This document shows positions 15,766 through 51,115 of a DNA stretch of 64,000 bases, in pieces; position 1 is the first letter of the stretch; each line of letters begins with the position of its first letter. Under the pieces are notes generated by a model, which was not told the DNA's origin, ran no database searches, and worked only from the letters and a program-made list of their open reading frames with translations. Made by a program: the position numbers and the translations under genes. Source of the stretch: an uncultured Candidatus Peribacteria bacterium (GTDB lineage Bacteria; Patescibacteriota; Gracilibacteria; Peribacterales; Peribacteraceae); NCBI GenBank assembly GCA_964648045.1, contig CAZYNU010000001.1:17208-81207 (forward strand), given 5' to 3'.

Positions 15766-17018
15766 GTAACCGCGTCTGTTTCTACTTCCAGGTGCACCAG
15801 CCCTACCGTCTGCGCGACTTGCGCGTGACAGACATTGGGGCCGCCACGCCCGATTACTTCGACGCCGAAAATAATCGCAAAATTTTCCGGAAGGTGGCCG
15901 AGAAATGCTACCTGCCGACCAATGCACTCCTACTCCAGTTACTCGATGAACAACCGGAGTTTCGAGTGTCGTTTTCGCTCTCGGGCGTGTTTCTGGACCA
16001 GTGCCAAGAATACGGCCGCGACGTGTTGAAATCGTTTAAAGCATTGGCCAAAACGGGACAGGTGGAATTCCTGGGCGAGACCGACTGCCATTCGCTGTGC
16101 GCGCTCAAATCCACCGCCGAATTCTGTTCCCAGGTAAAAGCGCACTCACAGAAAATCCGCAAACATTTTGGCCGCGTGCCGAAAGTTTTCCGTAATACCG
16201 AGCTAATCTACAGCAACGAACTCGCGAACCAGGTGCGCCTCCTAGGCTTCCGCGGCATGTTGGCCGAAGGCGTCGACCGCCTGCTTGGCGACCGCCACCC
16301 GGGCGACCCGGTGGTGCCGCCGGCCTTCCGCCTGCCGCGCCAGACCGAACACACCATCGCCGCCGCGCGCAGTCGTCCCCTCCCCAGCCGCCGCTTCCAC
16401 GTACTGCTGAAGCACTACCGTTTGAGTGACGACGTCGCTTTCCGTTTCTCCGACAAGAACTGGGCCAGTCATCCCCTCTCGGCCGAGACGTTCGCGCGCT
16501 GGGCGAAGGAGAGCCCGGGACACAGCGTCAATCTCTTCATGGACTACGAAACATTCGGCGAGCACCAGTGGGCCGAATCCGGCATTTTCGATTTTCTGGG
16601 TGCCTTGCCCGCGGCGCTGACTCGCGAAGGCATCGCCACCGTCACGCCGTCACAAGCCCTGCTGGAATGGAAAGGTGACAGCCCCATCTACGACGCCCAT
16701 GAACCAATTTCCTGGGCGGACAGCGAACGCGACCTCTCGGCCTGGCAGGGAAACGCCATTCAACAGGCCGCACTCGAAAACCTCTACGCCCTGGAGAAAG
16801 ACGTCCTGGCGGCCGATGACGACGACTTGCTGCTTGATTGGCGCCGACTCCAGACCTCGGATCACTTCTACTACATGTGCACGAAGTACTGGGCCGACGG
16901 CGATGTGCACAAGTACTTCAGCCCCTACGATTCTCCCTACGAGGCCTACCGCCGCTTCAGTCACGCCCTCTGCGATTTGCAGGCCCGCCTGGCCCGCATC
17001 CCCTCCTCCAACCGCTGA
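15762..17018 (+). CDS. Glycoside hydrolase family 57 (alpha-amylase/glucanotransferase-like)
   Basis: The start is trimmed to MSNRVCFYFQVHQPYRL (GH57-type N-terminus). MDYETFGEHQW is present. ATGA overlap with the upstream GT gene. Confidence 0.85.
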   Translation: MSNRVCFYFQVHQPYRLRDLRVTDIGAATPDYFDAENNRKIFRKVAEKCYLPTNALLLQLLDEQPEFRVSFSLSGVFLDQCQEYGRDVLKSFKALAKTGQVEFLGETDCHSLCALKSTAEFCSQVKAHSQKIRKHFGRVPKVFRNTELIYSNELANQVRLLGFRGMLAEGVDRLLGDRHPGDPVVPPAFRLPRQTEHTIAAARSRPLPSRRFHVLLKHYRLSDDVAFRFSDKNWASHPLSAETFARWAKESPGHSVNLFMDYETFGEHQWAESGIFDFLGALPAALTREGIATVTPSQALLEWKGDSPIYDAHEPISWADSERDLSAWQGNAIQQAALENLYALEKDVLAADDDDLLLDWRRLQTSDHFYYMCTKYWADGDVHKYFSPYDSPYEAYRRFSHALCDLQARLARIPSSNR

Positions 17019-30588: not shown

Positions 30589-31074
30589 TCAGACGACCAA
30601 GCGAAGGTGACTGGCCGGCATGAAGAGGATGTCATCCGGCGTAGTGGCTGCCGAATCGTAATCGTCGTAGCGGCAGGAATAGCCAGGGCACTGCGCCAGC
30701 GCCAGTTCGCGCGTGTACGCTGCCACGATGATGGCTTGAAGCGAATTCCGCGCGCCCGCGCAGACGGGGTGGGCGATATCGGCATGCAACTTCTGGCGGC
30801 CATCGGCTGCCGCCGTGGGATCGAGGTGTAACTTCCCACCGCAATCGTTGCAGAATCGAGCCCGGAGGTGGTTTTTACCACCACAATTCGGTGCCGGGCA
30901 GCGCCCGGTCAGCTTGCGACTCGGCATGGCGACGAACAGCCCCTTCGTGCCCTCGATGATCTTCAGGTCTCGAACGACGAACGCATTGTCGAAGCCGACT
31001 GAGGCGAAGGCACGAAGGCGCTCTTCGGCGACATCGGACATGAGCTTAATACGGACTTCGGTAACCAGGATCAT
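30589..31074 (-). CDS. spoVG: SpoVG-like protein with an inserted CxxC...CxxC zinc-ribbon and a C-terminal extension
   Basis: 161 aa. The SpoVG core is present (VTEVRIKL..., [30 protein letters not shown]), interrupted by [26 protein letters not shown]. Confidence 0.75.
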
Positions 31075-35653: not shown

Positions 35654-36493
35654 GTGCAGCGACGCCTCCTCATCACCGCCGACGACCTAGGTGCCAATCC
35701 CCCGCGCTCGCACGGCATCTTCCTATGCGCCGAGCAAGGTCTGGTGACTGGCGCAGGGCTGCTGCCCAACGGCAGCGACAGCGACCAGGCCGGCAAGCGC
35801 GCCCGCGAACGCCGTCTGCCCGTGGGCCTGCACCTGGCGCTCACCAGCGGCGAACCGCTCTCGCCGCCCGCCACCATCGAGAGCTTGCTCTTGCCCAACG
35901 GCACCTTCGCCGGGCGGCGAGAGTTCGAGCGGCGCCTGCGCGAGCGTGAGACCGACCGCACCCATCTGGAGCGCGAGATCCGCGCGCAGCTGGAATGGTG
36001 CCTCGACGTGCACGGCCAGCCGACCCATCTCTCGAGCGTGGACCACGTCCACTGCCACGCTGTCCTCGTGCCGCTCATCATCCCGGTGCTGCTGCGCTAC
36101 GGGATCCTGCGCGTGCGTATCCCCAGCGAACCTCTGCCACCTTTCGGCTACGAGATTCCCGAGGTCGACCTGGCGGCCGCCCGCGAGATCTCGGAGCGCG
36201 CCGAAGCCGCCCGCGCGCTCTATGCCGCCGATGGTATCACCGGTACCGACACCTTTCGCGGCCTCACACTGGTGGGACGCATGTCAGCCAAGAACTTTCG
36301 CCACACCATGGCTCGCCTGCCCGTCGAGGGATCGATCGAACTCATGGTGCATCCCGGCGCACCCACGCCCGTAGGGAGTGACTTCGATATCGATCCGCAG
36401 CGGCAGACAGAGCTGCAAACCCTCACCGACCCGACAGCGACAGAGTTGATCGCAAAAATGAAGCTACAGCGAGCAACGTACGCGGACATCTGA
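35654..36493 (+). CDS. YdjC/ChbG-family carbohydrate deacetylase
   Basis: 279 aa. LLITADDLG N-terminus, GLHLALT and SSVDHVHCH motifs. GTG start 6 nt after TATGCT. Confidence 0.75.
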   Translation: MQRRLLITADDLGANPPRSHGIFLCAEQGLVTGAGLLPNGSDSDQAGKRARERRLPVGLHLALTSGEPLSPPATIESLLLPNGTFAGRREFERRLRERETDRTHLEREIRAQLEWCLDVHGQPTHLSSVDHVHCHAVLVPLIIPVLLRYGILRVRIPSEPLPPFGYEIPEVDLAAAREISERAEAARALYAADGITGTDTFRGLTLVGRMSAKNFRHTMARLPVEGSIELMVHPGAPTPVGSDFDIDPQRQTELQTLTDPTATELIAKMKLQRATYADI

Positions 36494-36546
36494 AAACGGC
36501 GCCCCCGCAATGGCGGAGACGCCGTATGTGTTCAGCGTGAGAGAGA

Positions 36547-36903
36547 TTACTTCTTGGACGACGAGGCGCCGGCCGAGCGGGCGGCGGCAGCCGACGAGCG
36601 GGCAGCGGCCTTGGCAGCCTTGGTGGCAGCATCCTCCTCGAGACGGGGGGCAGTAATACCAGGTCGAGAGGGGGCACCGAGGCCCATGCCACGGCCCATA
36701 GCGGCCGAGGCGACCATGGCAATCACCCAGAGGGCGACGGCGGCTAGAATGCACATGCCGCCCCAGTATTTCTGACGCTCGCCGCTCAGGTGTTTGATGG
36801 CCCAAGCGAGCAGGAGCACGAGACCAACGAAGAAGAGCAAGTTGGAGAGGCCGTGAATGGCCGAAAGCCAACCGCCGGAGGAAGCCATCATGGGCATCAT
36901 CAT
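36547..36903 (-). CDS. Small two-helix membrane protein
   Basis: The start is trimmed to MMMPMMASSGGW. Two hydrophobic helices and an A/K/S-rich tail. Confidence 0.45.
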   Translation of the reverse strand: MMMPMMASSGGWLSAIHGLSNLLFFVGLVLLLAWAIKHLSGERQKYWGGMCILAAVALWVIAMVASAAMGRGMGLGAPSRPGITAPRLEEDAATKAAKAAARSSAAAARSAGASSSKK

Positions 36904-37008
36904 AGGAAGAAGTGGGGAGAAATCGGCCCGAGAATACCCTCGACACACAAGACAATCGCTTGCCAACCATCCAAACCCGCCGTCGGGCGTCCATTTCGCA
37001 CGGTGGCT

Positions 37009-39870
37009 TCAGTGTGCCTTGCGCGGTCCGCGCGGGGCGGGCTTAGCCGCCGGCTTGGGGGCCGGCGCAGGTGCGGGAGCGGCCGGGACCGACGCGGCGG
37101 CTGCGGAAGCGACGGCGTTAAGCGGCGTCATGTCCACACCGTACTGGGCGGCCACCTGCTCCACCGGCAGGCCGAGCGCCTCCGCAGCGGCTTGGACCAT
37201 CGACTTGCTGACGGGCGGCAGCGGCGCGCCCACGGCCGCCAGCTTGGCGGCGTAGTCGGCGAACTTCGCCTCGTCGTCGGGCGTGAAGGGCGTACCCAGC
37301 ATCTGCTTCTTCTTGAGGGCGTTATACTCGTTGGTCCACATCTCCTTGTCGCGCCAGGCGCGGTACTGCTCAAGCGTCATCTTCTTGGCGCGCGCCTTCT
37401 TCATCTCCTCCTCTTCTTTCTCCTTGGCCTTCGTGGCAACAGCCGCCTGCTGGCGCACAGCCGTGGCGCCCTGCATGGCTTGCGAGGTACCGCTGGCCCA
37501 ACGTGCGATCTTCTCCTCCACCACCTCACGCCTCTCGCTGTAGCGCTCGCGTGAAAGCTTGCGCACCATCTCCTCGCGACCGCTGTCGACCTCGAATTTG
37601 GGCGGCGGCAGCGTCCCCACCGAGAACGGCTTACTGGGAATACCGTCGATCATCAGACGGACGTACGCGTGGTACTTGGGCAAGCTCAAAATGTCTTTCG
37701 TGCTCACCATCTCCTCAAACTGCTGACTCAAAATTTCAGCGTCGTCGCTGCCTACCTGAAAGCTGACCATCGAACCCACGTTGCCGAAGACCGCATCGCG
37801 CAGCGACGTGTTACCCTGGCCGATGATGAGCTGGCCAACGTACTGGTTGGCCATGGTGAGCGCCAAACGGTACTTTCGGGCCTCCGAGAGAATGGTGGCA
37901 AACGACTCGGTAGCGAAGTTCTGGAACTCGTCGACGTACAGGTAGAAATCGCGGCGCTCTTTCTCGGGGATGTCGGCGCGGCTCATGGCGTCGATCTGGA
38001 ATTTGGTCACGAGCATGGAACCCAGGAAGGCCGAGGTATCTTCGCCGATCTTGCCCTTGCTCAGGTTCACGAGGATCACCTTGCCGCTGTCCATGGCCTG
38101 GCGAACGTTGAGCGTGCTGCGCACCTGGCCCACGATGTTGCGCATCACCGGCGTGGACATCAGCTGGCCGACTTTGTTTTGAATGGAAGCCAAGGCCTCG
38201 GTGCGGTACTTGTCGCTCCAGCTGGTGAATTCCGAATCCCAGAAGGTGCGAACCACGGGGTCGGTCACGTTGCTGACGATCTTCGCACGGTAGCCGTCGT
38301 CGGCAAACATGCGCAGGATGCCGAGCATCGACGACCCCTCGTTCTCAAGCAGCGCCAGGAGCGTGTTGCGCAGGATATACTCCATGCGACCCGAGAACGC
38401 CTCCGGCCAGAGCTTGATGAAGACCGACATCAGACCCGAGGCGATGAGCGGACGCTGGCCCGGGTCCGGACACTCGAGCATGTTGAACGAGATCGGCCAG
38501 TCGCGGTCGGCGGGATCGAAGAGGATCACGTCGTTCAGGCGCGACTTGGGCATAAAACGCATGGCGGCGTTGATCAGATCGCCGTGCGGATCCACCACGC
38601 CCACGCCCTTGCCGCCCATAATGTCGCTGAAGATCATGTTTTCCAGCACCGTCGATTTACCCATGCCCGTCTTACCGATGATGTAGACGTGGCGGCGGCG
38701 GTCATCGGGGCGGATGCCGAATTTCAGGCGGTGGCCATGGAACACCGACTCACCAAGCAAGGTAAGGTTCTCCTCGGGATCGGTCACACCGGGAATGGGC
38801 AAGTTCACCGGCGGCTCCAGCTTTTTACTCACCACGCGCTCCAAGTTGGCCGTCTGCACCAGGCTGGTGGGCACATGCCAGAGAGTGGCCAACTCTTCGG
38901 AGGAAAGAGCATAGGGCCGCATCTGCATGCCCAACGGCAGGGCGGCGGCGGTCTGAATCTTCCCTGCCACAAAGCCGTTGCTGGTGGGAATAGAGAACTG
39001 CTGGAAGGTGCTGGCGATCTCTTGAATCTTCTGCATGAGCAGATCGCCCTGCCCCTTGGGCCCAATCACGCTGATGCGCACATTCGCCAAAAAGAGCAGA
39101 CGGTTCACCTTGTCCTTGGCGCCGGCCACTTTGTCTTCCTTCTCGTGCGAGCGACTCGTCTGACCGTCGCTGCCCCCAGCAGCAGGCTTGGCGTCGGGTG
39201 AGGCCGCGGCCGAGAACTTACGGACAATCCCCCACATCTTCCAGCCACCCATCAGGATGCCAAGCGGCCAGAGCACAGCCCGGCGCCAGCCGCGGGCCAA
39301 TTGGATGTCCACGAAGAGCTGGGCGTAGGCACCCCACACGCTAGGCAGGCCCTTCTCAAGCAACGGCAGAAAGCGCAGTGCACGCTTGCGGAACGGCCCT
39401 TGCATGGGCTCGATGACGAGCTGGATGTGGCCGCGCATGCCCGGCAGCGGATAGCGCGCGAGCGCGGCCGTCATGGCCGAGAGCGGGTCCACGTTGGCCC
39501 GGCTCATCATGTCGTCGAACTGCGGGTAGCGCTTAATCGGAAACACTTCCGGATTCCTTAACTTCAGGTCGAGCGCCAGCACCTCCTCCCCTTCTTTGAG
39601 GGCGAACGGCTCTTGGCCAAGCTTCTCAATATCAATATCGGGATACTGCGCGTAGAGCTGGCTCTCGATGAGCGGCGCGGCGCGCGTGGAGCTGCGAATA
39701 TAAAAACCCACCTTCCCCTCGCGCATGCCGATCTCGAGCGAGACCTGACGGTCGGCGCCTTTGAGCGTATGCAGGGCCGCAGCGACGGTCTCCATGTACA
39801 CGGGGCCACGCTCCACGGGATCTTTCTCGTTTGGCAGGCTGGGCCAGAGGTGGAGCACCGTGGCGGTCAC
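37009..39870 (-). CDS. TraD/VirD4/TraG-like P-loop NTPase (orphan T4SS coupling-protein-like), 953 aa
   Basis: Walker A IIGKTGMGKST and Walker B FYLYVDEFQNF. It has an N-terminal non-ATPase domain and a C-terminal K/E then A/P-rich tail. The proposed GTG start at 39870 lies 1 nt after the hrcA stop. Confidence 0.75.
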   Translation of the reverse strand: MTATVLHLWPSLPNEKDPVERGPVYMETVAAALHTLKGADRQVSLEIGMREGKVGFYIRSSTRAAPLIESQLYAQYPDIDIEKLGQEPFALKEGEEVLALDLKLRNPEVFPIKRYPQFDDMMSRANVDPLSAMTAALARYPLPGMRGHIQLVIEPMQGPFRKRALRFLPLLEKGLPSVWGAYAQLFVDIQLARGWRRAVLWPLGILMGGWKMWGIVRKFSAAASPDAKPAAGGSDGQTSRSHEKEDKVAGAKDKVNRLLFLANVRISVIGPKGQGDLLMQKIQEIASTFQQFSIPTSNGFVAGKIQTAAALPLGMQMRPYALSSEELATLWHVPTSLVQTANLERVVSKKLEPPVNLPIPGVTDPEENLTLLGESVFHGHRLKFGIRPDDRRRHVYIIGKTGMGKSTVLENMIFSDIMGGKGVGVVDPHGDLINAAMRFMPKSRLNDVILFDPADRDWPISFNMLECPDPGQRPLIASGLMSVFIKLWPEAFSGRMEYILRNTLLALLENEGSSMLGILRMFADDGYRAKIVSNVTDPVVRTFWDSEFTSWSDKYRTEALASIQNKVGQLMSTPVMRNIVGQVRSTLNVRQAMDSGKVILVNLSKGKIGEDTSAFLGSMLVTKFQIDAMSRADIPEKERRDFYLYVDEFQNFATESFATILSEARKYRLALTMANQYVGQLIIGQGNTSLRDAVFGNVGSMVSFQVGSDDAEILSQQFEEMVSTKDILSLPKYHAYVRLMIDGIPSKPFSVGTLPPPKFEVDSGREEMVRKLSRERYSERREVVEEKIARWASGTSQAMQGATAVRQQAAVATKAKEKEEEEMKKARAKKMTLEQYRAWRDKEMWTNEYNALKKKQMLGTPFTPDDEAKFADYAAKLAAVGAPLPPVSKSMVQAAAEALGLPVEQVAAQYGVDMTPLNAVASAAAASVPAAPAPAPAPKPAAKPAPRGPRKAH

Positions 39871-39871
39871 T

Positions 39872-40585
39872 TTAGGAGGCGGAGAGGAAGTCGGCCACCA
39901 GCTTGAGGGCCGCCGTATTGTAGGCGTAATCCATGCGCATCGGCCCCAGCACACCCAGGAAACCCTTGTGGCCGCGCAGGGAATAGGGCGTGACGAGCAG
40001 GCTGCAGCTCTGAATCTGAGGGAGAAGATGCTCCTCGCCGATGTAGGTGCGGACTCCATCGCCGGGCGGCGCCTGGTCGAGGATCTTGGTCAGCTTGGAC
40101 TCGAGCACCTCCACCACGCCGCTGGCAAGCAACGGGTCCAGTTGGAACTCCGGCTGGCGGAGCGTCTGCGCCAAGCCCAGGAAATAGACACCCGGCTTGT
40201 GCGGCACCGTCGCAAAGGCCACGTTGGCAATCATATGTGAGAGCAGAGCGACGGCCTCGTAGGCTCGCTCCTGATCTTTCTGCTTAAAATACTGATCCTT
40301 GAGTTCGGCAAATTTCTTCTCCACCGTCTTCAAGTGCGGCGAGGGTTGCAGAGCGGTCTCCTCGGCATAAAAGCGATACCCCTTGGCGGTCGGTACGCGG
40401 CCCGCCGAAACGTGCGGCTGCTCCAAAAACCCCTCCTCGCCCAGGAAGCGCATCTCATTACGAATGGTGGCGCCCGATAGCGAAAAGCGGCTGTGCCGCT
40501 GCAATTCCTGGGATCCGACGGGAATCGCGGTCTTAATGAATTGGTCGATGATGGCCACGAGCAGCTTGGCCTGGCGACTGTTCAT
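39872..40585 (-). CDS. hrcA: Heat-inducible transcription repressor HrcA (short form, 237 aa)
   Basis: The start is trimmed to MNSRQAKLLVAIIDQF. PVGSQEL ... SGATIRNEM is the HrcA winged-helix N-terminus. A CIRCE element sits immediately upstream. Confidence 0.85.
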   Translation of the reverse strand: MNSRQAKLLVAIIDQFIKTAIPVGSQELQRHSRFSLSGATIRNEMRFLGEEGFLEQPHVSAGRVPTAKGYRFYAEETALQPSPHLKTVEKKFAELKDQYFKQKDQERAYEAVALLSHMIANVAFATVPHKPGVYFLGLAQTLRQPEFQLDPLLASGVVEVLESKLTKILDQAPPGDGVRTYIGEEHLLPQIQSCSLLVTPYSLRGHKGFLGVLGPMRMDYAYNTAALKLVADFLSAS

Positions 40586-40597
40586 ATCCTTTCCAGT

Positions 40598-40624
40598 ATA
40601 GCACTCTAGTGCATCGAGTGCCAT
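40598..40624. promoter_or_regulatory. CIRCE operator (ATAGCACTC-N9-GAGTGCCAT)
   Basis: Matches the TTAGCACTC-N9-GAGTGCTAA consensus at 15 of 18 arm positions. It overlaps a TATACT -10 (40595-40600, minus strand) that lies 9 nt upstream of the hrcA ATG. Confidence 0.7.
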
Positions 40625-40892
40625 GCAGAATCGCCAGTTTTTGCCCTTTTGACAGCCCTATGACCACGAACGACAACCACGTACACTGGCGGCGCGCCCG
40701 CATCACTCTTGGAGAAAATCGTATGCATCGACTGTGGGAACTGTGGGACGAAGCCCTTTCACTGGGCGAAAAAATTGCCACCTGGGTGAAAAATGCCCTC
40801 TGGCGACCACCGCCTCCACCTGCAGGTGTCTGACAAAAACTGACCAGCCCCGGCTGGATCCAGCCCCGAAAGGGGCCTTTCTTGACGGTACG

Positions 40893-40918
40893 AAAAAGGC
40901 GCCTCGCGGCGCCTTTTT
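40893..40918 (-). terminator. Intrinsic terminator downstream of rpmE (symmetric, A-run/T-run on both sides)
   Basis: AAAAA-GGCGCC-TCGC-GGCGCC-TTTTT. Confidence 0.65.
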
Positions 40919-40938
40919 GAGGTCGTTGGGATGCGCGC

Positions 40939-41154
40939 TCAGGCGGGCTTGGAAGCCGACTGGAGCTTGCGGAAACGCTCGATGCGACCGCCCTTCGTGT
41001 TCGTCTGCTTCTTGCCCGTGTACTGAGGGTGGCAAGCGCGGCAGGCTTCGACCGTCTGCGTCTGCACGGTGGAAGGGATCATGTAGACGGCCTGGCACGT
41101 CGTGCAGGTGGTCTTGGCGTCTTGGTGCATCTGAGGGTGGATCGCGGTCTGCAT
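40939..41154 (-). CDS. rpmE: 50S ribosomal protein L31 (Zn-binding type)
   Basis: 71 aa. MQTAIHPQ..., CTTC ... CRACHPQYTGK. Confidence 0.9.
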   Translation of the reverse strand: MQTAIHPQMHQDAKTTCTTCQAVYMIPSTVQTQTVEACRACHPQYTGKKQTNTKGGRIERFRKLQSASKPA

Positions 41155-41219
41155 AGGAGTGAGGGGATTCTACTGATCAAAAGTGGGAATGCAAGCTATT
41201 CTTGACCTTCCGGTCGGGC

Positions 41220-43895
41220 TTATTTCTTCTTCTTAGCGGGAGCCTTCTTGGCTTTGCCGGCCAAAGCGGGCTTGGGCTCTTCCTGGGCGGCCTTGAGCTC
41301 GGCCAGCTCCTCGGCCTCGTCGACGATGGCCTCCACCTCCTCGGCGCGCTCATCGGCGGCAGCCTGGGCAATGGCAGCTTCGGCCTCAAGGTCGCGCATC
41401 ACAGCCGAAACGGTGGCAACCTTGTCGTTGCCGTTAAGGCGCATGACGATCACGCCCTGCGTGGCGCGGCCACGGGCCGGAATGCTTGAGAGCGCCATGC
41501 GAATGGTCTGGCCCTGACGCGAGATGCAAATGAGATCGCCCTCCGAGCCTTCCTCCAACACGCAACCGCCGATGATATCGCCGGTCTTGGCCGTCAGCTG
41601 GGCGCTCTTCACGCCCGTGCCGCCGCGGCCCTGGAAGCGATACTGGTCGACGGGCGTCATTTTACCGAGACCGTTCTCCATGACGACGAGCACCATGCTC
41701 TTGGACGCGTCACTGATGGTGGAAGCCTCCACCACCTCGTCGCCGCCGCCCAGCTTGATGCCGCGCACGCCGGCCGCCGCGCGGCCCATGGAGCGCACGT
41801 CCTCCTCGGGGAAGCGGATGGCCTTACCCTTGCGCGAAAGCAGGATGATCTCGTGCTTGCCGTTGGTGGCCAGCACCCACTTCAGCTCATCGCCTTCGGG
41901 TACCTTCTGGGCAATAAGACCCGAACGGCGAATATTGTCGAACTCGGACACCTCGGTGCGCTTCACGGTGCCCTGCTTGGTGACGATGAAGAGGTACTTG
42001 TACTGCGAGAGATCGGCCTTAAGAATGGCGGTGACGCGCTCCTCGGGCTTGAGCTGAAGCAGGTTCACGATCGCCTGGCCGCGGGCCACGCGACCTGCCT
42101 GGGGCAATTCGTAGGCCGGCAACTGGAAGACACGACCCGTGTTCGTGAAGTAGAGCAGGTCGTCGTGGTTCATCACGTGCAGCAGGCTCAGAACTTCGTC
42201 GTCCTCCTTCATTTCCACGCCCTTCACGCCCTTGCCGCCGCGCTGCTGGGCGCGGAATTGGGCGGGACTGAGGCGCTTCACGTAGCCGCTGCGCGTGAGC
42301 GTCACGATCATCGGCGCGTTTGGGATCGTATCCTTGGCACTAAACTCACCGGCAGCCGTGGGGACCACCACCGTGCGGCGGGCGTCGCCGAACTGGGCGC
42401 GCAGCTCCGTCATCTCCTCGCGGAAAATTTTGTCGATGCGCTTCTTGTCCTTCAAGATCGCCTCACACTCAGCGATAAACGCCTTCTTCTCTTTCAGTTC
42501 GTCTTCGATCTTCTTACGCTCCAGGCCGGCCAGCGTCTGCAGGCGCATGTCCAAAATAGCGGTGGCCTGAATGTCGCTGAGCTTGAACTTCTTGATGAGC
42601 TGCTCCTTGGCGATCTCCTTCGTCTCGCTCTTGCGAATGGTGGCCACCACTTCGTCGATGTGATCGAGCGCGGTGGAAAGACCTTCCAAGATATGGGCAC
42701 GCTCCCTGGCGCGGTCGCGATCGTAGGTGACGCGGCGCGTGATGACGACGCGGCGGTGCTCAATGAAGACCGAGAGCATCTCCTGCAGATTCATGAGGCG
42801 CGGCTGCAGGCCGTCGGCTAGGGCGATCATGTTGTAGCCGAAGCTCGACTGTAATTCCGTGAGCTGAAACAGCTGGTTTAACACCTTCTGCGGGTACGCG
42901 TCTTTCTTCAGTTCGACGATGATGCGGATGCCCTCGCGGTCGGATTCGTCACGCAAGTCGCTCACGCCCACGATCACCTTCTCGGTGACCAGCTCGGCCA
43001 TGCGCTCAATGAGCGTGGTCTTGTTAACCTGGTACGGAATCTCACTGATGCGGATGTGATAGCGGCCAGAAGAGCCAATCTCTTCGATCTCGGCTTTGCC
43101 GCGAATAGCGATGGAACCGCGGCCCGTCAGGTAGGCCTGCTTGATGACCTCTTTGCCGTAGACCATGCCGCCGGTCGGGAAGTCTGGCCCCTGCACGAAC
43201 TGGAGCAGATCCTCCACCGTCGCCTCGGGATGATCGAGCAGGTGCAGGAGCGCGTCGGCCAATTCGCCGAAGTTATGCGGCGGGATGTTCGTGGCCATAC
43301 CCACGGCGATGCCGACGGTGCCGTTGAGCAGCAAGTTCGGAATCTTGGAGGGCAACACGTCTGGTTCTTTGCGCGAACCGTCGTAGTTGAGGTGGAAGCC
43401 AACCGTATCCTTGTCGATGTCTTGCAGAATCTCGTCGGTGATGCGGGCCATCTTCGCCTCCGTGTAACGCATGGCGGCGGCGCCGTCACCATCGATGGAA
43501 CCGAAGTTTCCCTGCCCGAAGATGAGCGGGTAACGCATGGCGAATGGCTGGGCCATGCGGACCAACGCCTCGTAAATAGGCGCGTCGCCGTGGGGGTGGT
43601 ACTTACCCATCACGTCACCGACGGTGGTGGCAGACTTTTTGAATTTGGCGCTGCTGCGCAGGCCGATCTCACTCATGGTGTAGAGAATGCGGCGATGCAC
43701 CGGCTTCAGTCCGTCGCGAGCATCCGGCAGGGCGCGCGAAACGATGACGCTCATGGCGTAGCTCAGATAACTCTCCTCCATCTCGTTCACAATCGGACGC
43801 GGCTTAATGCGGCCAATGGATGACAGCGTCTCGCCCAGGCTCTGCTGTTCGGCCTTCTTCTCAGGCTGGTCTTTGGGGGTGTCCTTCTCGGGCAT
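41220..43895 (-). CDS. gyrA: DNA gyrase subunit A
   Basis: [35 protein letters not shown] and a C-terminal beta-pinwheel region. ATG 43895 is preferred, and GTG 43919 (the track start) is possible. Confidence 0.95.
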
Positions 43896-43992
43896 AGGGA
43901 AAGTGGGTGACCGCGGCACTCTACCAGAGCGCGGCCGGGCACGGGAAGAAACCGCTTTTGAATCCGGAATATTGGCCTAAAAGCTGCCTGAC

Positions 43993-46900
43993 TCAAGGAA
44001 AGACCCGCACGATCACCTGCGTAGCCGACTCACGGCGGAAATCAGTGGTGGCGTTCGTGAGGCCCCAATCGTCCACGTATGTATTGCGTGAGTACATCGA
44101 CTTACGCACATTACTGACGGTATTCCAAGTAATGGAGCCCTCGGCAAAGACCGTCTCGATGAGCTTGTCGTAAAACTTCTCCTCGTCCTTGATGTAGCCA
44201 CTCAATTCCACAAGACCATCGTGAAGCCGATGCTTGGCGTTACTGCGGTCGCTCCAGGCCACCTCATAGGGGAAGATATTCAGAATGCGCCACAGGCGAT
44301 CGGACGTGCCGCCGCTGCGGTCGTTTTTAAGGACGTGCCGAGCCATGCGCTTCCAGTCGTCGCCCAGATCACCCGAGAATATATTGGGGCGGATCTTGAG
44401 CCACTCGGCACCGGGGTTCTTGCCGAGATCAGAGAAGTTCAGCTGCGTCGGATCGGCTACGTCTTTGGCCTTGATGCGGTAGTACTGCAAGCGGTGACCG
44501 CCGTTGTCCTCGTCTGGCTGATGAGTCTTGGAACCGAAGTTATTAATCTCTTTGGAATCGTTTTTTGGATCAAAGGACGGGTGGCGAGCGAGGATGATCC
44601 ACGCCTCGCCCTTCGGATCATTGAAACGTCCGATGCTGACGCGCTCTTTGGAACCAGGTGAGACCGGCACCGAGACAAGCTCCTTCCCGTTCATCACGGC
44701 CTTACGAACGTCGAAGCGCCAGCCAGCAATCTTCTCGGCGTGGGCGGTGGCATCTTTCTCAAGCCCGTCACGCAGTGCGCCGGCCCCCTTCTCGTTGAGC
44801 ATCTTTTCAAATTCAGCCACGCGCTTAATGGAGAGAGCCGTCCTCACGGCCGTCATCTCTTTCTCGCTGAGACGATCAAGGAGGGGCAGAAGCTCTTTCT
44901 TCACGAACGGCGGAAAATTTTTCTCCCAGTAGTCACCAGCCTTCAAACGCTCATACTCGGCAGCCGTCGCCTTGTGCTTGGCCAGCGACTGGTACACATC
45001 CATACAAACGAAGTAGGCATTCGTACCGAACTTCTCACACTCTTTTTGGATATCTCGGTCCTTCGCCATCGTGAGCAATTTCCCCTCAATGATCTCATGC
45101 AAGCGCATGGCCTGCTCGTAGCTGTAGCGCGTCTCTTTCAACTGCTCCTCCAACTTGGGCTTCAGCTCCTTCACGCCCTCCAACAGATCTTTCACGTTGC
45201 CGACCAGCTGCGGGACCATGATCGGCTTGTAGTCGCGATCAAAGGCAGGGAATCCATTGCGTCCCATAGCTTGTACCGGACGGTAGATCAGAACTTTCTC
45301 CAGCCCCTTCATGCGATCGCCTTCATTGGCACGAATGTACTCGGCCTTCAGTTGGGCCACCTCCTCGGAACGCTTGGTCTCGGCCGACTTGGCGAGTTCG
45401 TCCTGCGTGCGGCGTTCAGCCTCGATAGGCTTGAGGTGCTCCTCCAGGCCAGCGGCGGAACCGGGATACTGTTTGCAAAAATCCGCAAAGGAGACGGTAC
45501 GCGCCTCGCTGTAGGTCACCGAGTTGATTTGCTGGCGACCGCGATAGTAGAACTGACGCTGGGCACCGCGAATCTCCACCGTCCACGAAGCGCGATCACC
45601 ACTAGGACAGATGAAGGAGTAGAGCTGCAGATCGCCGGTGTTGGTGCGCGACTGAAGCAAGAGAAGCTGCGGAGCTGAGTCCATACCGCGCCGCACGAGT
45701 GAGGCGAGGTAGTCCACCGTCTGGCGGCCGTTGATACCGGCGTCCATATCGAGCAGGCCGGGCAGCTCGCCTTGCACCAGGAACGGTGCCCCCTTGGTCT
45801 CGAAGCGATCTTTCACGTTGGCGGCCCACACCTTCTGCGCGCCCACCTTACCCTTGAGCACAGCCTCGCTGAGCTTGGCACGAATATTGCGCAACTGCTG
45901 ACTCGTCACCATCTCGCGAGAGGAAGCCATCTGTTGAATGGCGGTATACGTCTCGGCCAGCAGGGCGTCGGCTACATCTTTCGAGAGCGTTTCGCTCAAA
46001 TCTTTGGTGGCGGCGTGCACCTGCGCCATCAACTGAAAGAGTTCGTCACGAATACCGATGGTCGGCACGTTGAGCGACTGCGCGCCCTTGAAGATGTTGA
46101 TGCCGGGCCCCTTCCACTCTTTGTAGAGCGAGTCGAAATCTTGGCCGAGCGCATCCATGATACTCAGCTTCTGTTCCACCTTGAGGGCTTTGGCCAACTC
46201 GGCGCCGTAGTCCTCGGGTTTCATGTCCGGATAGGCCGAGCGAGACACGGCGCGATTGCGGCGCATGGCGTCGGCAATGGTCTGCACCAAACCGGCCTGC
46301 ATGAACTCGGTCGACGGGGCATGCTCACCGTTGTAGTTGGCCAGATCACCAAGCCACACCTTGCGGTCGTAGACGCCGAGATAGTTGGCCAAACTCACAT
46401 CCTTAGCTGTCTCGGTAAGCAGTTCGCGGTAGGCCTGGAAGGCCTTAAAGAGCGGATCGGTCACCTTCTCCGCACCACCCGCCTTGGACGCCAAACCGTC
46501 AACGTAGTCGCGAGCCTTCTTCAACCCCGGTGCGTCCTTGCCGGTACCTGCCAGGGCGTAGCGCACGAGGTTGTCGTTGCGTACGGCCTTGCCGCCGTCG
46601 CGCGTGGCCAGCTCTACACCACCCAGCGTGTCGCCCGCTTCGAATGCACCGGCAGCCTTAAGACCGGCTTCCAGTTCCCGCTCCTGCCCGGCCAAGGAGG
46701 TAACGTGGATGTGCAACGTGACTGACTGCGTCTTGGCCCACTCCTTCACATCGGACACTTTGCGCAGCTCCCAGAGCTTGAGCGCAATCGGACTCTCCTT
46801 TCCCCCCTTGGCCACGGCCTGGTCGACGCGCGCGTTCCAATCGTCGAGGGTGTGATAGTAGTCGCCACTCAGCATGCCCGACGGCGAGGCCAAGTTGGCC

Positions 46901-48603
46901 GGGCGCGTCATGTAGTTGCGGAAGTCACGATCGGGATCGACGGTAGAGACGCCAGTGATCTCGGCCAACTCCTCGAGGCCGCCGATGGCGAAGTCACCGG
47001 AGACGGTGGCGAGCAGATTCCCCACCACGTCTTTGGTGGCCGACTCGGGAATGTTCTTGTCGGCCCAGGTGCAGATTTTCTCGATGGTGTCTTGCGAGGC
47101 GAAGGCCACGGCCATGCCGATGGCAAAGAGCACATAGGGATTCTTGGGCGCCGCCTTCAGAATGCCGGCAACGCGCAGCGCGTTGCCCGCCGCCAGAGCC
47201 GCCTTCGACGTGGCCTTACCCACCATGATGAACGACGCGAACTGCATCGTGGCCTTCACCTTGTTGGGCGATTCGTGCAGGTAGAGCCCCCAGAGCAGCA
47301 CGGTCACGGGGCTTTCGATGGCCAGAAGTTCGCCCCAGAACTTGGGGCCGAGCGGCATGCGATTGAAAGCACCAAAAAGCTTGCCGAGCGTTTCGACCGG
47401 CATGCCCACCTTGCCCATCTGGGCGCAGACCTGCTCCCAACCCTTGATGACACCCATGCGCGCGGCGGGGGCGAGATCGCGCAGGATCGGGATTTTTTGG
47501 AGCGTCCGTTTGTTCACCGCTTCCCAGCTCAAGTATTCCTCGAGCACCTCCTCGGCCGCCTCGTTGATGATGACACCCATGTAGAGAAGCCACTGGTCAT
47601 TGTCGACTTGCGGCTGCTTGATAACCTTGCGCTCGTAGAGATCGCGATTCACCAGGAAGGTAACAATGCCCTCCACCTGGTTCTTGCCCACCTCGCCGCC
47701 CAGATTGCGACGCATGGCTAGAGCCACGCGGTTGGAAACCGTCATGCGCTCCTCGTTGAGCTTGGCGTACTGGGCGAGCACCGCGGGCTTCGTACGAGTG
47801 GCGACATCGCGCGCCTGCGAGGGCGGTAGCACCGGGCGGGCGAGCGAGGCGATGAATTGGTGTAATTCCGCCTCGGTGCAGTCGGCGGGGAATCCCATCT
47901 CCTTCAGGAAGATCTCGCGGCCGGCCGTGCGGCAGTCGATCTCGTATTTCTGGCGGCGCTTGGCGAAATTGAGCAGCGCCTCGCCGGCGGTCGCCACGGG
48001 ATCGGGCGGCGGCTGGCGGAGCGCCGGCGCGAGGGCGGCGCGCATCGCCTTGGCCTCGTCCGACAGAGCCTCGTATTCTTTAGTGAGTTCGGGCTTGGCG
48101 CCGGCGGGGGGCGGCAACGGCTTACCCTCACCGAACAGGAAGCGTACGGCCTCCTCGGCCTCGGGCCCCTTGGCGCCGGAGTAGGCGGAGACGCTCGCCA
48201 CGTTGTCGGCCATCACCTTGGCGTAGGCCGTCTCGTGCGCGATGGCCGCCTTCACGATGGGAAGCGAAAGGAGGAGCTCAATCTTCTTTTTGGCCGTTTC
48301 GCTGTCTTTTTGTTCGAGCGAAGTGAGCAGCTGTTCGATCTGGCCGAACATCTCTTCCAGCTTGGCCGCGTCCATGTGACCGGCAGCCTGAAGGGCATCC
48401 CACGTCGTCTTAAGTCCGTCGAGCTGGCCTCGAGTAGCCACAAACGGCGCCGACTGCGTGCGACCACGCGAGAGGAAGTCGTGGAACACTTTCAGGTCGC
48501 CCGTGAGCACCTCCGGCTGCTTGGCCAGTTTTTCCTGCAGGCGCAGGCGCTGGGCCACGAACGAGTCGGGTGCGGCGGCCGGTGCGGCTTTGGGTGTTTC
48601 CAC
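43993..48603 (-). CDS. Giant hypothetical protein (1536 aa) with an internal hydrophobic cluster
   Basis: Long uninterrupted ORF with normal-looking amino-acid composition and no motif I recognise. Hydrophobic segments lie around aa 430-510. Confidence 0.7.
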   Translation of the reverse strand: METPKAAPAAAPDSFVAQRLRLQEKLAKQPEVLTGDLKVFHDFLSRGRTQSAPFVATRGQLDGLKTTWDALQAAGHMDAAKLEEMFGQIEQLLTSLEQKDSETAKKKIELLLSLPIVKAAIAHETAYAKVMADNVASVSAYSGAKGPEAEEAVRFLFGEGKPLPPPAGAKPELTKEYEALSDEAKAMRAALAPALRQPPPDPVATAGEALLNFAKRRQKYEIDCRTAGREIFLKEMGFPADCTEAELHQFIASLARPVLPPSQARDVATRTKPAVLAQYAKLNEERMTVSNRVALAMRRNLGGEVGKNQVEGIVTFLVNRDLYERKVIKQPQVDNDQWLLYMGVIINEAAEEVLEEYLSWEAVNKRTLQKIPILRDLAPAARMGVIKGWEQVCAQMGKVGMPVETLGKLFGAFNRMPLGPKFWGELLAIESPVTVLLWGLYLHESPNKVKATMQFASFIMVGKATSKAALAAGNALRVAGILKAAPKNPYVLFAIGMAVAFASQDTIEKICTWADKNIPESATKDVVGNLLATVSGDFAIGGLEELAEITGVSTVDPDRDFRNYMTRPANLASPSGMLSGDYYHTLDDWNARVDQAVAKGGKESPIALKLWELRKVSDVKEWAKTQSVTLHIHVTSLAGQERELEAGLKAAGAFEAGDTLGGVELATRDGGKAVRNDNLVRYALAGTGKDAPGLKKARDYVDGLASKAGGAEKVTDPLFKAFQAYRELLTETAKDVSLANYLGVYDRKVWLGDLANYNGEHAPSTEFMQAGLVQTIADAMRRNRAVSRSAYPDMKPEDYGAELAKALKVEQKLSIMDALGQDFDSLYKEWKGPGINIFKGAQSLNVPTIGIRDELFQLMAQVHAATKDLSETLSKDVADALLAETYTAIQQMASSREMVTSQQLRNIRAKLSEAVLKGKVGAQKVWAANVKDRFETKGAPFLVQGELPGLLDMDAGINGRQTVDYLASLVRRGMDSAPQLLLLQSRTNTGDLQLYSFICPSGDRASWTVEIRGAQRQFYYRGRQQINSVTYSEARTVSFADFCKQYPGSAAGLEEHLKPIEAERRTQDELAKSAETKRSEEVAQLKAEYIRANEGDRMKGLEKVLIYRPVQAMGRNGFPAFDRDYKPIMVPQLVGNVKDLLEGVKELKPKLEEQLKETRYSYEQAMRLHEIIEGKLLTMAKDRDIQKECEKFGTNAYFVCMDVYQSLAKHKATAAEYERLKAGDYWEKNFPPFVKKELLPLLDRLSEKEMTAVRTALSIKRVAEFEKMLNEKGAGALRDGLEKDATAHAEKIAGWRFDVRKAVMNGKELVSVPVSPGSKERVSIGRFNDPKGEAWIILARHPSFDPKNDSKEINNFGSKTHQPDEDNGGHRLQYYRIKAKDVADPTQLNFSDLGKNPGAEWLKIRPNIFSGDLGDDWKRMARHVLKNDRSGGTSDRLWRILNIFPYEVAWSDRSNAKHRLHDGLVELSGYIKDEEKFYDKLIETVFAEGSITWNTVSNVRKSMYSRNTYVDDWGLTNATTDFRRESATQVIVRVFP

Positions 48604-48652: not shown

Positions 48653-51115
48653 TCACTTACGCTTGATCTTGGGATGCGCGCCGGCCTTGAGGGCGGCCTC
48701 CACATCGGCCTTCACGTCGCCCTCACTGCGACCGTCCACCTTAATGTCGAGCTTCACCGCCAGGTCGGCGATGGCGCGGGCATCCATCTTGCCCAGATCG
48801 ATGCGGGCGGGGTCAATCTCGGTCTCGGCAGTGCGGCCGCTCGCGTCACCTTCAACACGAGCCTCATCGACTACGACGTCATCGGCAGCTTCCAGAGCTT
48901 TGATCCTCTCTTCCAATTCCAAGATGCGCGCCCGGTCTGCCTCTCGCTCTTTGCGGAGCGTGGCCAATTCAGCCTTTGCCTCAGCCATGGCTTCAGTCGG
49001 CGTCTGGCCCGGCTTCAGGAAGCCTTCCAGGTAACCAATCAGACTGCCGCGTTTCACCGCACGTGCGGGGCCAGAAATGAGCGTGCGATCGAAGAGACTT
49101 GGAATACCGTTGGCAATGCGAGAGAACGGACGGCGGAAGCCGATACGGTTCTCACCCAGGCGAGCGAAGCCGCCGCGACCACCAAGTGCATAAGCAGTTG
49201 CCAAACCGGCGGCGCCGAACACGAGCCACTTCAAGAAGTCATCGTCTTCGCCCTTCTGGTTACCGGCGGCGATGTCGGCCTCCACCTTCTTGTCTTGGTG
49301 GGCCTGGATGTTCTCCATGACCAATCCTTCCAGCTTGCCCATGGCACGGGCATACGCATTCCAGTGGCCACGCATCTGCAGGTAGAGCGCCACGTAGGCG
49401 GCAAGCATGCGCGGACCGTCTTTGGGATCAAGATCGGCAATATCGGCCGCAGTCAGACCCTTGGTGACGAATTGCTCCACTAAGGCAGGGTCTGCCTTCT
49501 TGCCCAGCAGCACCTCGGCGCTGGTCTTCTTACGCAAGCTCTCAAGCATCACCAGATCGGTCTCGAATTCTTTGGCCGGACCTTCCACCTCGGCACGGCA
49601 CTTTTCGATATTCGCCTTCACCGAGGTCATCTTGGCCTCGTGCTTCGCCTTGGCGCCGGGCCAGCGCTTATCCTCTTCAAGATCTTTCCAATCTTTGGCG
49701 CTGTTCAAGTCGAAATCCTCGGGCAGACCCATCGCCTTCAGGAGACCGGCCATGTTGTCCTTCGCGTACTCACTGCCCTCCTTTGTGGAGAGGACCTTCT
49801 TCATGCTGAAGTCGAGTGTATCGGCCACGGTGTCGCCCAAAGTGGAACGTGTGACACCAACTGCCACTTTGCGCGGGCCGTTCACCACCATCGAGCGAAC
49901 GCCGCCGCGGTACTTGGCAAGCAGATTGAGCACCATGGCGGCGCGGGCAGAGGCCTGCTCCGTCCAAAGCTGCTCCAGCTTCATGTCCCAACGCTTCGTG
50001 CTGAGAAGGTGATCTTTCTCGAAGCCCTTAGCGGGACGCCCCGGGCGCGGCCCCAAGACCATGTCGAAGTGACCGCGGAAATTTTCGGTGAGGGCATCCA
50101 CCGTGCTGCCCATGATTTTCTCGCCTTCAGCAGCGGCCGCGTTGGCCAAGGGAATGCTTGGCGCCTTAGCCACAGCTGCAGGCTTTTGATACTGGCGTTG
50201 CCCCTCGGGAATCGTGAACTCCTCAATATCCGCGATGTTCTCCAGGCCGGTATGGCGCAGGAGCGATTCCAATTCCACACCAAGCGACGCTCCGACCTTC
50301 TGAAGAGCCGCGACCTCGCCCCGGAATTTCTCGGCCAGGGCATTCTTCTCTTCTTGAGTCACCGTCCCCTTTTTGAGAAGCAGACGCAACTCCACCTCGT
50401 ACTCGTTCCCCTTCTTAAGAATTAGGCTGTTGTTCTGGCGCAGCGCCCGATCGATCAGGTCGCCGTAGAGGGCATTCGTCAGAACGGGCAAAGGATTCAC
50501 AGCCTCCTTAAGGGCCTCCGTCGCACGCTGAAGCGCGGTGATATCGTTGGTGCCCCACAGCGCCAAGCGGGCGGCGGCGGCGGTATTGAATTTCTTCAAT
50601 TGGTCTTGCACTGCCTTCTCCAAAGCCGGATCAGCCGCGACGCCATAGGCCGCATGCTGCTTCTTCAACACCAGGTAACGATCGATCATACCGAAGTTCC
50701 GCTCAATCAGACCCGGTAGGACCGTGTAAAACGCCTCGCGTCCGGAGGCATATTTCTCCTCGTCGGTCGGCACCGCACGCGTCTTGTCGTTGACTTGCTG
50801 CAAGCGCAGCAGCTGCGCCTGAGTTTGGTTGATCACCGAGAGCGCTTCAATGGTACGCTGATCCTTACCGTCAAACTTGGCCCGCATGTCGCGGAGTAAG
50901 TCGGCATGACGCTGATCGACGGCCGTCTTCGGATCGATCTTCTGGCCCTCGACATAGCCGCGAGCTGTATTGGGGCCACTCCCACCGAAGAGTCGACGCG
51001 CTTCCGTAAACTCCGGAAATGCCTTACGTAAATCGTCGATATCCGCCGGGAGGGGAACCTCCTTGGGGTTGCGGGTATTTTCGACGTCTTTCCGAGCGGG
51101 CAATTTCTCGTCCAT
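48653..51115 (-). CDS. Large hypothetical protein (820 aa), helix-rich with one hydrophobic segment
   Basis: Uninterrupted ORF. FLKWLVFGAAGLATAYALGG is the only hydrophobic stretch. The C-terminus is coiled-coil-like (AELATLRKEREADRARILELEERIKALE). Confidence 0.7.
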   Translation of the reverse strand: MDEKLPARKDVENTRNPKEVPLPADIDDLRKAFPEFTEARRLFGGSGPNTARGYVEGQKIDPKTAVDQRHADLLRDMRAKFDGKDQRTIEALSVINQTQAQLLRLQQVNDKTRAVPTDEEKYASGREAFYTVLPGLIERNFGMIDRYLVLKKQHAAYGVAADPALEKAVQDQLKKFNTAAAARLALWGTNDITALQRATEALKEAVNPLPVLTNALYGDLIDRALRQNNSLILKKGNEYEVELRLLLKKGTVTQEEKNALAEKFRGEVAALQKVGASLGVELESLLRHTGLENIADIEEFTIPEGQRQYQKPAAVAKAPSIPLANAAAAEGEKIMGSTVDALTENFRGHFDMVLGPRPGRPAKGFEKDHLLSTKRWDMKLEQLWTEQASARAAMVLNLLAKYRGGVRSMVVNGPRKVAVGVTRSTLGDTVADTLDFSMKKVLSTKEGSEYAKDNMAGLLKAMGLPEDFDLNSAKDWKDLEEDKRWPGAKAKHEAKMTSVKANIEKCRAEVEGPAKEFETDLVMLESLRKKTSAEVLLGKKADPALVEQFVTKGLTAADIADLDPKDGPRMLAAYVALYLQMRGHWNAYARAMGKLEGLVMENIQAHQDKKVEADIAAGNQKGEDDDFLKWLVFGAAGLATAYALGGRGGFARLGENRIGFRRPFSRIANGIPSLFDRTLISGPARAVKRGSLIGYLEGFLKPGQTPTEAMAEAKAELATLRKEREADRARILELEERIKALEAADDVVVDEARVEGDASGRTAETEIDPARIDLGKMDARAIADLAVKLDIKVDGRSEGDVKADVEAALKAGAHPKIKRK

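Follow-up and report, generated by a model that had tools for sequence, protein, structure and literature searches.

A CIRCE-controlled hrcA gene and a VirD4/TrwB-type ATPase gene form a probable operon in a Peribacterales genome

We analyzed a stretch of 64,000 nt from a Peribacterales chromosome (Patescibacteria/candidate phyla radiation, CPR), hereafter the window, to whose positions all coordinates refer; homologues with 60–87% identity bear the names Peribacteria or Peregrinibacteria. Here, a short hrcA gene carries a controlling inverted repeat of chaperone expression (CIRCE) at its promoter and is followed on the same strand, after a single nucleotide, by the gene of a 953-aa ATPase related to type IV coupling proteins. 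The best overall explanation of this arrangement, which we regard as fairly likely, is an HrcA-controlled operon produced by lineage-specific gene order.

The CIRCE operator lies at 40598–40624 and is read on the minus strand as ATGGCACTC-N9-GAGTGCTAT. In full, positions 40624–40598 are ATGGCACTC-GATGCACTA-GAGTGCTAT, which runs into TATACT. Compared with the consensus TTAGCACTC-N9-GAGTGCTAA, the operator matches at 15 of 18 positions, and its 12-nt core is perfect. The exact core, GCACTC-N9-GAGTGC, occurs once in the 64 kb and in none of 100 shuffled sequences. When two mismatches are tolerated, the number of sites in the window is at chance level, and therefore only the CIRCE at 40598–40624 is meaningful. 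The hrcA promoter (40595–40624, minus strand) is composed of the −35 hexamer ATGGCA (40624–40619), an 18-nt spacer, and the TG-extended −10 hexamer TATACT (40600–40595), and it is the sole sigma-70-like site in a promoter scan of 36000–41500. CIRCE overlaps both hexamers; the original prediction, which had placed it over the −10, is thus borne out. Moreover, the −10 ends 9 nt 5′ of the ATG, so the hrcA mRNA is probably leaderless or carries a very short leader.

The hrcA promoters are strikingly uniform across the aligned genomes. A CIRCE homologue with at most one core mismatch is present in 17 of 21 relatives and ends 9–14 nt before the hrcA ATG. A −10-like hexamer (TATACT, TATAAT, or a close variant) stands just 5′ of the hrcA start, usually at approximately 6–9 nt; in 17 of the 21, it is fused to the right arm of CIRCE (GAGTGCTATACT or the form ending in -TATAAT), and this arm usually doubles as the extended −10. 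As a separate observation on the upstream regions of the aligned genomes (L001–L054, L129, L201, and L202, where L numbers denote loci), the TATACT or TATAAT hexamer is often TG-extended and lies 6–12 nt from the hrcA start, the same short spacing recurs 5′ of the ATPase gene in L054, L012, L008, L007, and L129, and Shine-Dalgarno sequences are mostly absent. Promoters in Peribacterales seem to be leaderless, with operator and −10 fused. Additionally, the CIRCE of L201 (815–841) shows a symmetric change in both arms (GCAGTC-N9-GACTGC versus GCACTC-N9-GAGTGC) that preserves the inverted repeat, and the CIRCE sites of L004, L008, and L016 are changed only in the right arm. Such arm changes could reflect co-variation with HrcA specificity.

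A search for related operators covered the hrcA-ATPase spacers and 1.43 Mb of related loci. The latter held only four further CIRCE sites with one core mismatch, namely two in L005, away from hrcA, and those in L028 and L068. A metagenome scan with the pattern GGCACTC-N9-GAGTGCTA, aimed at the Peribacterales CIRCE regulon, returned 120 sites, mostly unrelated (groES, dnaK, hrcA, and sigma factors). It yielded one more Peribacterales hrcA-ATPase locus, L129, and revealed no Peribacterales chaperone operons. A literature search found no paper linking CIRCE or HrcA to CPR.

The hrcA frame (39872–40585, minus strand) extends from ATG 40585 to the TAA at 39874–39872 and encodes a short form of 237 aa with a winged-helix N-terminus and a C-terminal HrcA domain. 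Its assignment in the original prediction is upheld by Pfam PF01628 (76.2 bits; cutoff 22.2) and by Thermotoga maritima HrcA (1STZ), which matches over residues 1–122 with E=6e-17. Against the TIGR00331 equivalog, the protein scores 170 bits, below the 197-bit cutoff. Full-length HrcAs from unrelated loci align with it in two blocks, and residues ~76–133 of the query face 120–140 subject residues, an alignment that implies a deletion of about 95–100 residues after the winged helix.

The genes that usually accompany hrcA are missing from this locus. Chaperone, relaxase, and VirB-type genes were all absent from the 46 window open reading frames (ORFs) scanned with Pfam, and tblastn with DnaK, GroEL, and GroES gave no match in the 64-kb window, as had been anticipated. 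Neither the window nor, in 20 relatives, the DNA up to 10 kb from hrcA contains class I chaperone genes (grpE-dnaK-dnaJ and groESL); CIRCE-bearing chaperone operons may lie elsewhere in the genome, beyond the window. The contrast with chaperone operons drawn in the original prediction also holds, since two other short-HrcA loci, from metagenomes, keep the order CIRCE-hrcA-grpE-dnaK(-dnaJ). One short-HrcA locus of low GC content, L153, has two CIRCE sites (6812–6835 and 10062–10085). One lies 5′ of hrcA; the other, on the opposite strand, lies 5′ of an ORF beginning MSLVENLQTKIK, and dnaK begins nearby, at ~10160.

The junction between hrcA and the ATPase gene reads GCCTCC-TAA-A-GTG, with a 1-nt gap and the GTG at 39870. 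No Shine-Dalgarno sequence and no correctly placed −10-like hexamer precede this GTG. Furthermore, the scan of 36000–41500 placed no promoter- or terminator-like site at the junction, its sites besides the hrcA promoter being upstream of or inside hrcA, and no promoter was found inside hrcA. The use of GTG 39870 as the ATPase start is supported because the N-terminus is conserved, with residues L6, R9, R21, G22, and P23 nearly invariant among 20 homologues, and because the N-terminal model, itself confident, begins with a strand at residues 3–9. An extension to ATG 40059 (1016 aa) was rejected; its extra 63 residues are rich in Arg, Trp, and Cys, overlap the hrcA frame, contain no transmembrane segment, and make an implausible protein.

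Downstream of the ATPase gene, a small, 118-aa ORF (36547–36903, minus strand) that encodes two hydrophobic helices is a possible third cistron. Its GC content at third codon positions (GC3) is 0.76; it replaces a 176-aa ORF at 36464–36994, which has a GC3 of 0.60 and runs through a terminator hairpin. The 118-aa ORF is specific to this genome and has no counterpart 3′ of the ATPase gene in relatives; as it is not conserved, it was discarded as a conserved partner or anchor of the ATPase. The hairpin itself (36492–36525, minus strand) resembles an intrinsic terminator, with a 13-bp G+C-rich stem, a 4-nt loop, and UUUU. Its folding energy is −30.6 kcal/mol (z = −4.1), none of 200 shuffled sequences folds as well, and it is likely the 3′ end of the transcription unit. 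The simplest unit would thus comprise the promoter with CIRCE, hrcA, the ATPase gene, possibly the 118-aa ORF, and the terminator, because the junction has no signals of its own and the hairpin follows the 118-aa ORF. Co-transcription of the two genes, as originally proposed, is very probable from the 1-nt gap and from the lack of a Shine-Dalgarno sequence and of any intervening promoter or terminator. That the ATPase gene is both co-transcribed with hrcA and under HrcA/CIRCE control in this genome is reasonably likely, because the sequence and the tight junctions in close relatives point the same way.

In HrcA systems, HrcA represses its own transcription through CIRCE at the promoter. In the window, HrcA bound at CIRCE would stand in the way of RNA polymerase and so repress hrcA. 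The ATPase gene would most likely be co-transcribed and translationally coupled with hrcA, and the 118-aa membrane ORF may join the unit, which would end at the 36492–36525 hairpin. Under such control, the ATPase would be made at a low, self-limiting level, and its expression would increase once proteotoxic stress inactivates HrcA. The pairing of the two genes would be a lineage-specific gene order that lies outside the core function of the ATPase; hrcA probably left grpE-dnaK and came to lie between rpmE and the ATPase gene.

The 953-aa ATPase (37009–39870, minus strand) consists of three regions, in agreement with the non-ATPase N-terminal domain, Walker motifs, and long tail noted originally. 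Residues 1–345 make up an alpha/beta domain whose predicted fold resembles that of VirB4. Residues ~360–760 correspond to a TrwB/VirD4-like motor interrupted by an all-alpha insertion, whose helices span residues 470–595. Residues ~765–953 form a tail that is first charged (A/E/K/R-rich) and then Ala/Pro-rich. Walker A, GKTGMGKS (38653–38676, minus strand), is invariant in 20 homologues, as are Y645, V646, D647, E648, F649, Q650, N651, and F652 of Walker B, LYVDEFQNF (37915–37941, minus strand). The profile searches proposed in the original prediction gave a divided answer. The Pfam coupling-protein models and DUF87 are passed, marginally (TrwB_AAD_bind, 30.8 bits with a cutoff of 20.5; T4SS-DNA_transf, 22.8 bits with a cutoff of 20.1; DUF87, 31.3 bits), whereas the NCBIfam TraD/VirD4 equivalogs are missed by a factor of 10–20 (TIGR03743, 39 versus 366 bits; TIGR03754, 30 versus 648; NF045973, 30 versus 250). 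In a PDB profile search, TrwB was the sole significant sequence match (E=2.6e-6).

Structure prediction extends this picture. The full-length model (pLDDT, the predicted local confidence score, 69.7) was best matched by Foldseek to TrwK/VirB4 (8e-12), with TrwB at TMt 0.57 and E=1.6e-9, followed by HerA, DotL, and Cag-beta. Modelled alone, the N-terminal 345 residues reached a pLDDT of 83.7 and a predicted TM-score of 0.83. The only significant PDB matches of this domain, the top nine, are to the N-terminal domain of VirB4 (TrwK), at E=3e-5 to 1e-3; the similarity, with a TMq of ~0.42 and a root-mean-square deviation of ~8.5 Å, is one of fold only. No VirB4-family sequence match to the ATPase appeared in Pfam, even at E<=1, or in the PDB profile search. 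As predicted, the ATPase thus couples an N-terminal domain resembling that of VirB4 to a motor of the VirD4 kind. Hydropathy gave no N-terminal transmembrane anchor; 19-residue Kyte-Doolittle means peak at 1.29 (residue 198). The PADLOC mad8 model matches the motor domain (55.7 bits), and PADLOC gave no other match in the four neighboring ORFs that were scanned, the small one downstream and three large unknown ones. A defense-system reading based on mad8 and HerA was set aside, as the homology is at the domain level only and system context is missing.

The original prediction called this ATPase an orphan, a state that is not peculiar to the locus. The family is Patescibacteria-wide, chromosomal, and located away from type IV secretion system (T4SS) and relaxase genes. 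It comprises 6,341 clusters at 50% identity with E<=1e-30, 4,219 word-indexed matches, and at least 566 species-level genome loci, and in many members only the motor domain is present, with 50–57% identity to the motor. According to the passages on VirD4 and coupling proteins in Quinonero-Coronel et al. (Microb Genom 2025, PMC12102498), 2,918 Patescibacteria genomes hold 5,713 VirD4-type homologues, only 148 of which are near virB4. The same passages describe the VirD4-type gene as non-essential in Southlakia and suggest exaptation for another function; the orphan state of these ATPases is, on this account, already published. Those passages, together with the ones on the clade, contain no hrcA link, no Peribacterales, and no VirB4-like N-terminal fold. 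The Peribacteria genome paper, for its part, treats neither chaperones nor heat shock nor conjugation, and the one passage in which it mentions secretion deals with type II secretion and type IV pili. We place the ATPase in this Patescibacteria-wide family of chromosomal VirD4/TrwB-type homologues within the FtsK/HerA superfamily; it would most likely be a hexameric NTP-driven motor that translocates DNA or protein at the envelope.

In other CPR lineages, including more distant "Peribacteria", Gracilibacteria, Saccharibacteria, Uhrbacteria, and others, the neighbors of the ATPase gene are pgk, ruvX, rplI, secF, ribH/ribE, and ssb. In no lineage outside the Peribacterales clade is hrcA beside it, and no relaxase or mating-pair-formation genes are among the recurrent neighbor clusters of CPR loci. 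Many family members of these lineages have an N-terminal transmembrane helix with a hydropathy mean of 2–3. A strongly hydrophobic N-terminal helix precedes the conserved LLRI..ERGP motif in L040 (7301–7400) and in the representatives P0123, P0125, P0128, P0130, P0131, P0146, P0170, and P0179. This helix has been lost in the Peribacterales clade, whose ATPase genes follow hrcA. Outside CPR, Planctomycetota homologues with 40–47% identity and the same N-terminal domain adjoin a Replic_Relax (PF13814) gene. In these loci (L046, 8850–9557; L067, 8125–9006; L052, 5710–6534), a second conserved neighbor ORF is primase-like by sequence and has no Pfam match. This neighborhood suggests that the family also resides on mobile elements outside CPR; as a functional clue, it was discarded, since the mobile-element context does not carry over to CPR.

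Conservation of the gene pair was examined in 24 genomes, namely 20 genome loci with enough upstream DNA, L129 from the metagenomes, L201, L202, and the window. The adjacency predicted for relatives is kept throughout: in 24 of 24, hrcA is immediately 5′ of the ATPase gene, on the same strand and in the order rpmE-hrcA-ATPase. It is also confined to this one clade, and its spacing varies. ATPase identity within the clade is 57–87%, and the closest relatives, L201 (87%) and L202 (74%), each have a 5-nt gap. The gap is −4 to +8 nt in 11 genomes (ATGA, TAATG, TGATG, TAAGTG, and similar), 13–23 nt in two, 36–56 nt in five, and 105–221 nt in six; in seven genomes, the stop and start codons overlap or abut.

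Several observations weigh against parts of the best explanation. The spacer is 36–221 nt in 11 of the 24 genomes, and five of the six spacers of 105–221 nt carry a TATACT, TACACT, TACAGT, or TATAGC hexamer. In L012, L008, L007, and L129, TATACT, TACACT, or TACAGT lies 6–12 nt before the ATPase start with no CIRCE, and the spacer of L054, one of the five of 36–56 nt, has T6 after a hairpin and, further on, TTATACT 8 nt 5′ of the ATPase ATG. CIRCE is absent from all hrcA-ATPase spacers. Because of these long spacers with CIRCE-free −10-like hexamers, HrcA control of the ATPase does not seem to be conserved across the clade, and about half of the clade appears to have uncoupled the two genes again. 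Additionally, no CIRCE is recognizable in L007, L012, L014, and L047, and the 237-aa HrcA is a truncated form, a predicted repressor. Finally, the membrane placement of the ATPase is uncertain because the protein does not have the N-terminal membrane helix of many CPR relatives.

The long spacers also have features of their own. Those of L008 (3561–3680), L013 (2646–2856), L129 (~7490–7590), L012, L007, and L016 form stable hairpins, at −26 to −61 kcal/mol. The L008, L013, and L129 spacers contain long palindromes of the AATTGA(T/G)AATT type, with AATTGAGAATTGA(A/T)AATT or AATTGATAATT motifs. The palindromes look like a family of small insertions in Peribacterales genomes, similar to miniature inverted-repeat transposable elements (MITEs) or repetitive extragenic palindromic (REP) sequences.

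The same comparison bears on an adaptive interpretation, in which the translocase was placed under HrcA/CIRCE for induction by heat or proteotoxic stress and serves host interaction, DNA uptake, or effector delivery. The adjacency has persisted in 24 of 24 genomes although the clade ATPases have diverged to ~57% identity, the stop and start codons overlap or abut in seven, and hrcA is away from grpE-dnaK here, with other short-hrcA loci retaining that operon. However, long spacers occur in approximately half of the clade; CIRCE-free −10-like hexamers stand just 5′ of the ATPase start in five of these, and some show hairpins. Furthermore, the entire gyrA-rpmE-hrcA-ATPase block, in part with glyA downstream, is collinear across the clade, so the synteny is not specific to the gene pair, and the sister clade L040 has the same neighborhood without hrcA, as gyrA-rpmE-(glycosyltransferase)-ATPase. 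The synteny is therefore no proof of selection for co-regulation. Other lineages that carry the ATPase family have no hrcA link either. We consider this interpretation unlikely; an adaptive tie of the translocase to stress is not supported because the family is universal in CPR without hrcA, the spacers are long, and the block is collinear. A related reading, in which a soluble protein that has lost its membrane anchor and has a VirB4-like N-terminus and a VirD4-type motor belongs to the HrcA regulon and proteotoxic stress specifically switches on translocation (DNA uptake, effector delivery, or an unfoldase-like activity), is distinctly improbable. If true, the class I heat-shock response of an episymbiotic CPR bacterium would extend beyond chaperones to a branch derived from a T4SS.

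Alternatively, the ATPase might be expressed independently of HrcA, from a promoter in the 3′ part of hrcA or from a downstream start codon, which would also count against the operon. An automated gene caller starts the 74% orthologue at a downstream ATG that corresponds to position 39795 of the window, and clade promoters lie so near their start codons that one could hide in coding sequence, as with TAAGAT 10 nt before the ATG in L001. In contrast, the residues before M26 are conserved and include those that form the first beta-strand of the N-terminal model; this speaks against the start at ATG 39795 that the original prediction had itself considered. Moreover, the conserved frame of L202 reaches a TTG 5 nt after the hrcA stop, and the scan inside hrcA and the sequence before GTG 39870 provide no promoter or placed −10-like hexamer. 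Independent expression is accordingly improbable. As for a decaying coupling protein left by a conjugative or mobilizable element after loss of its relaxase and T4SS genes, the Planctomycetota homologues beside Replic_Relax and the mad8 match would fit, but this origin is extremely improbable given the intact frame with invariant catalytic motifs, the native codon-position GC (GC3 is 0.83 for the ATPase gene and 0.82 for gyrA, and the gene is therefore native to this genome), the vertical conservation at 57–87% in a fixed housekeeping context, and the lack of an integrase, relaxase, or repeat boundaries in the 64-kb window.

The surroundings of the proposed HrcA-controlled unit are chromosomal; the Pfam picture of the 46 window ORFs is one of ordinary housekeeping genes and several large unknown ORFs. 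Upstream lie rpmE, encoding L31 (40939–41154, minus strand), and, upstream of rpmE, gyrA (41220–43919). A terminator-like hairpin with a T run (40844–40857, minus strand), 3′ of rpmE, sets rpmE apart from the hrcA promoter. Between this terminator and the promoter is a divergent small ORF of 36 aa (MHRLWELWDEALSLGEKIATWVKNALWRPPPPPAGV; 40723–40833, plus strand), and L201, the 87% relative, has a called gene of 40 aa in the corresponding place (617–739, minus strand). Two very large ORFs on the minus strand (43993–48603, 1536 aa; 48653–51115, 820 aa) separate gyrA from the conserved methylase and pgi genes. They are missing from the syntenic region of relatives and have no Pfam, NCBIfam, or PADLOC match; they may belong to the large exported proteins described from Peribacteria (PMC4736985). 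A SpoVG homologue (30589–31074, minus strand) has Pfam profile positions 3–81 stretched across its residues 4–121 and a weak double-zinc-ribbon match at residues 62–83, which suggests a SpoVG with an inserted zinc ribbon. Finally, a glycogen/starch-type cluster (14563–19072, plus strand) comprises a GT4/GT5 glycosyltransferase, a GH57 enzyme, and a GH15 glucoamylase-like gene.

If transcripts confirm the operon, it would provide the first regulatory handle on the orphan VirD4-like ATPases of nearly all Patescibacteria; ATPase expression would follow HrcA in one order, and the HrcA regulon would be open to rewiring in reduced genomes. The biological significance of the locus is probably modest because two known parts are joined by a lineage-specific order and about half of the clade is apparently uncoupled. 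The predicted VirB4-like N-terminal fold and the seemingly leaderless, operator-fused promoters may prove more useful than the hrcA link.

Compared with class I HrcA/CIRCE regulation, as in the hrcA-grpE-dnaK-dnaJ operon of Bacillus subtilis, the locus has the same 9-bp inverted repeat with a 9-bp spacer at a promoter just 5′ of hrcA, a placement that implies autoregulation. It differs in that no chaperone gene follows hrcA and in that the right operator arm is fused to an extended −10, 9 nt from the ATG. The protein shares the winged-helix N-terminus of T. maritima HrcA (1STZ) and is ~100 residues shorter than the 338-aa HrcA model.

The ATPase shares with type IV coupling proteins (TrwB of R388, VirD4, TraD, DotL, and Cag-beta) the FtsK/HerA motor with Walker A and B motifs and the all-alpha insertion. 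In contrast, it has a soluble alpha/beta domain of 345 residues in place of an N-terminal transmembrane domain, and its gene is chromosomal and vertically inherited, with no relaxase or T4SS genes nearby. With VirB4 (TrwK of R388), its model has in common the two-domain plan of an N-terminal alpha/beta domain followed by a motor; it differs in the missing sequence-level match, in a TM-score that is only moderate, and in the absence of virB3-, virB6-, and virB8-type genes from the window and from the recurrent neighbor clusters of related loci. Unlike in the MADS anti-phage system, the eight-gene mad operon is not present among the four flanking ORFs covered by PADLOC, where the mad8-model match to the ATPase stands alone. 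By description, the ATPase also resembles the orphan VirD4-type homologues of Patescibacteria, which the passages in PMC12102498 portray as chromosomal, widespread, and almost never beside virB4 or a relaxase gene. Collectively, the locus looks like a combination of two known kinds of component, with no new system; what is new lies in the arrangement of the probable operon and in the predicted VirB4-like fold of the N-terminal domain.

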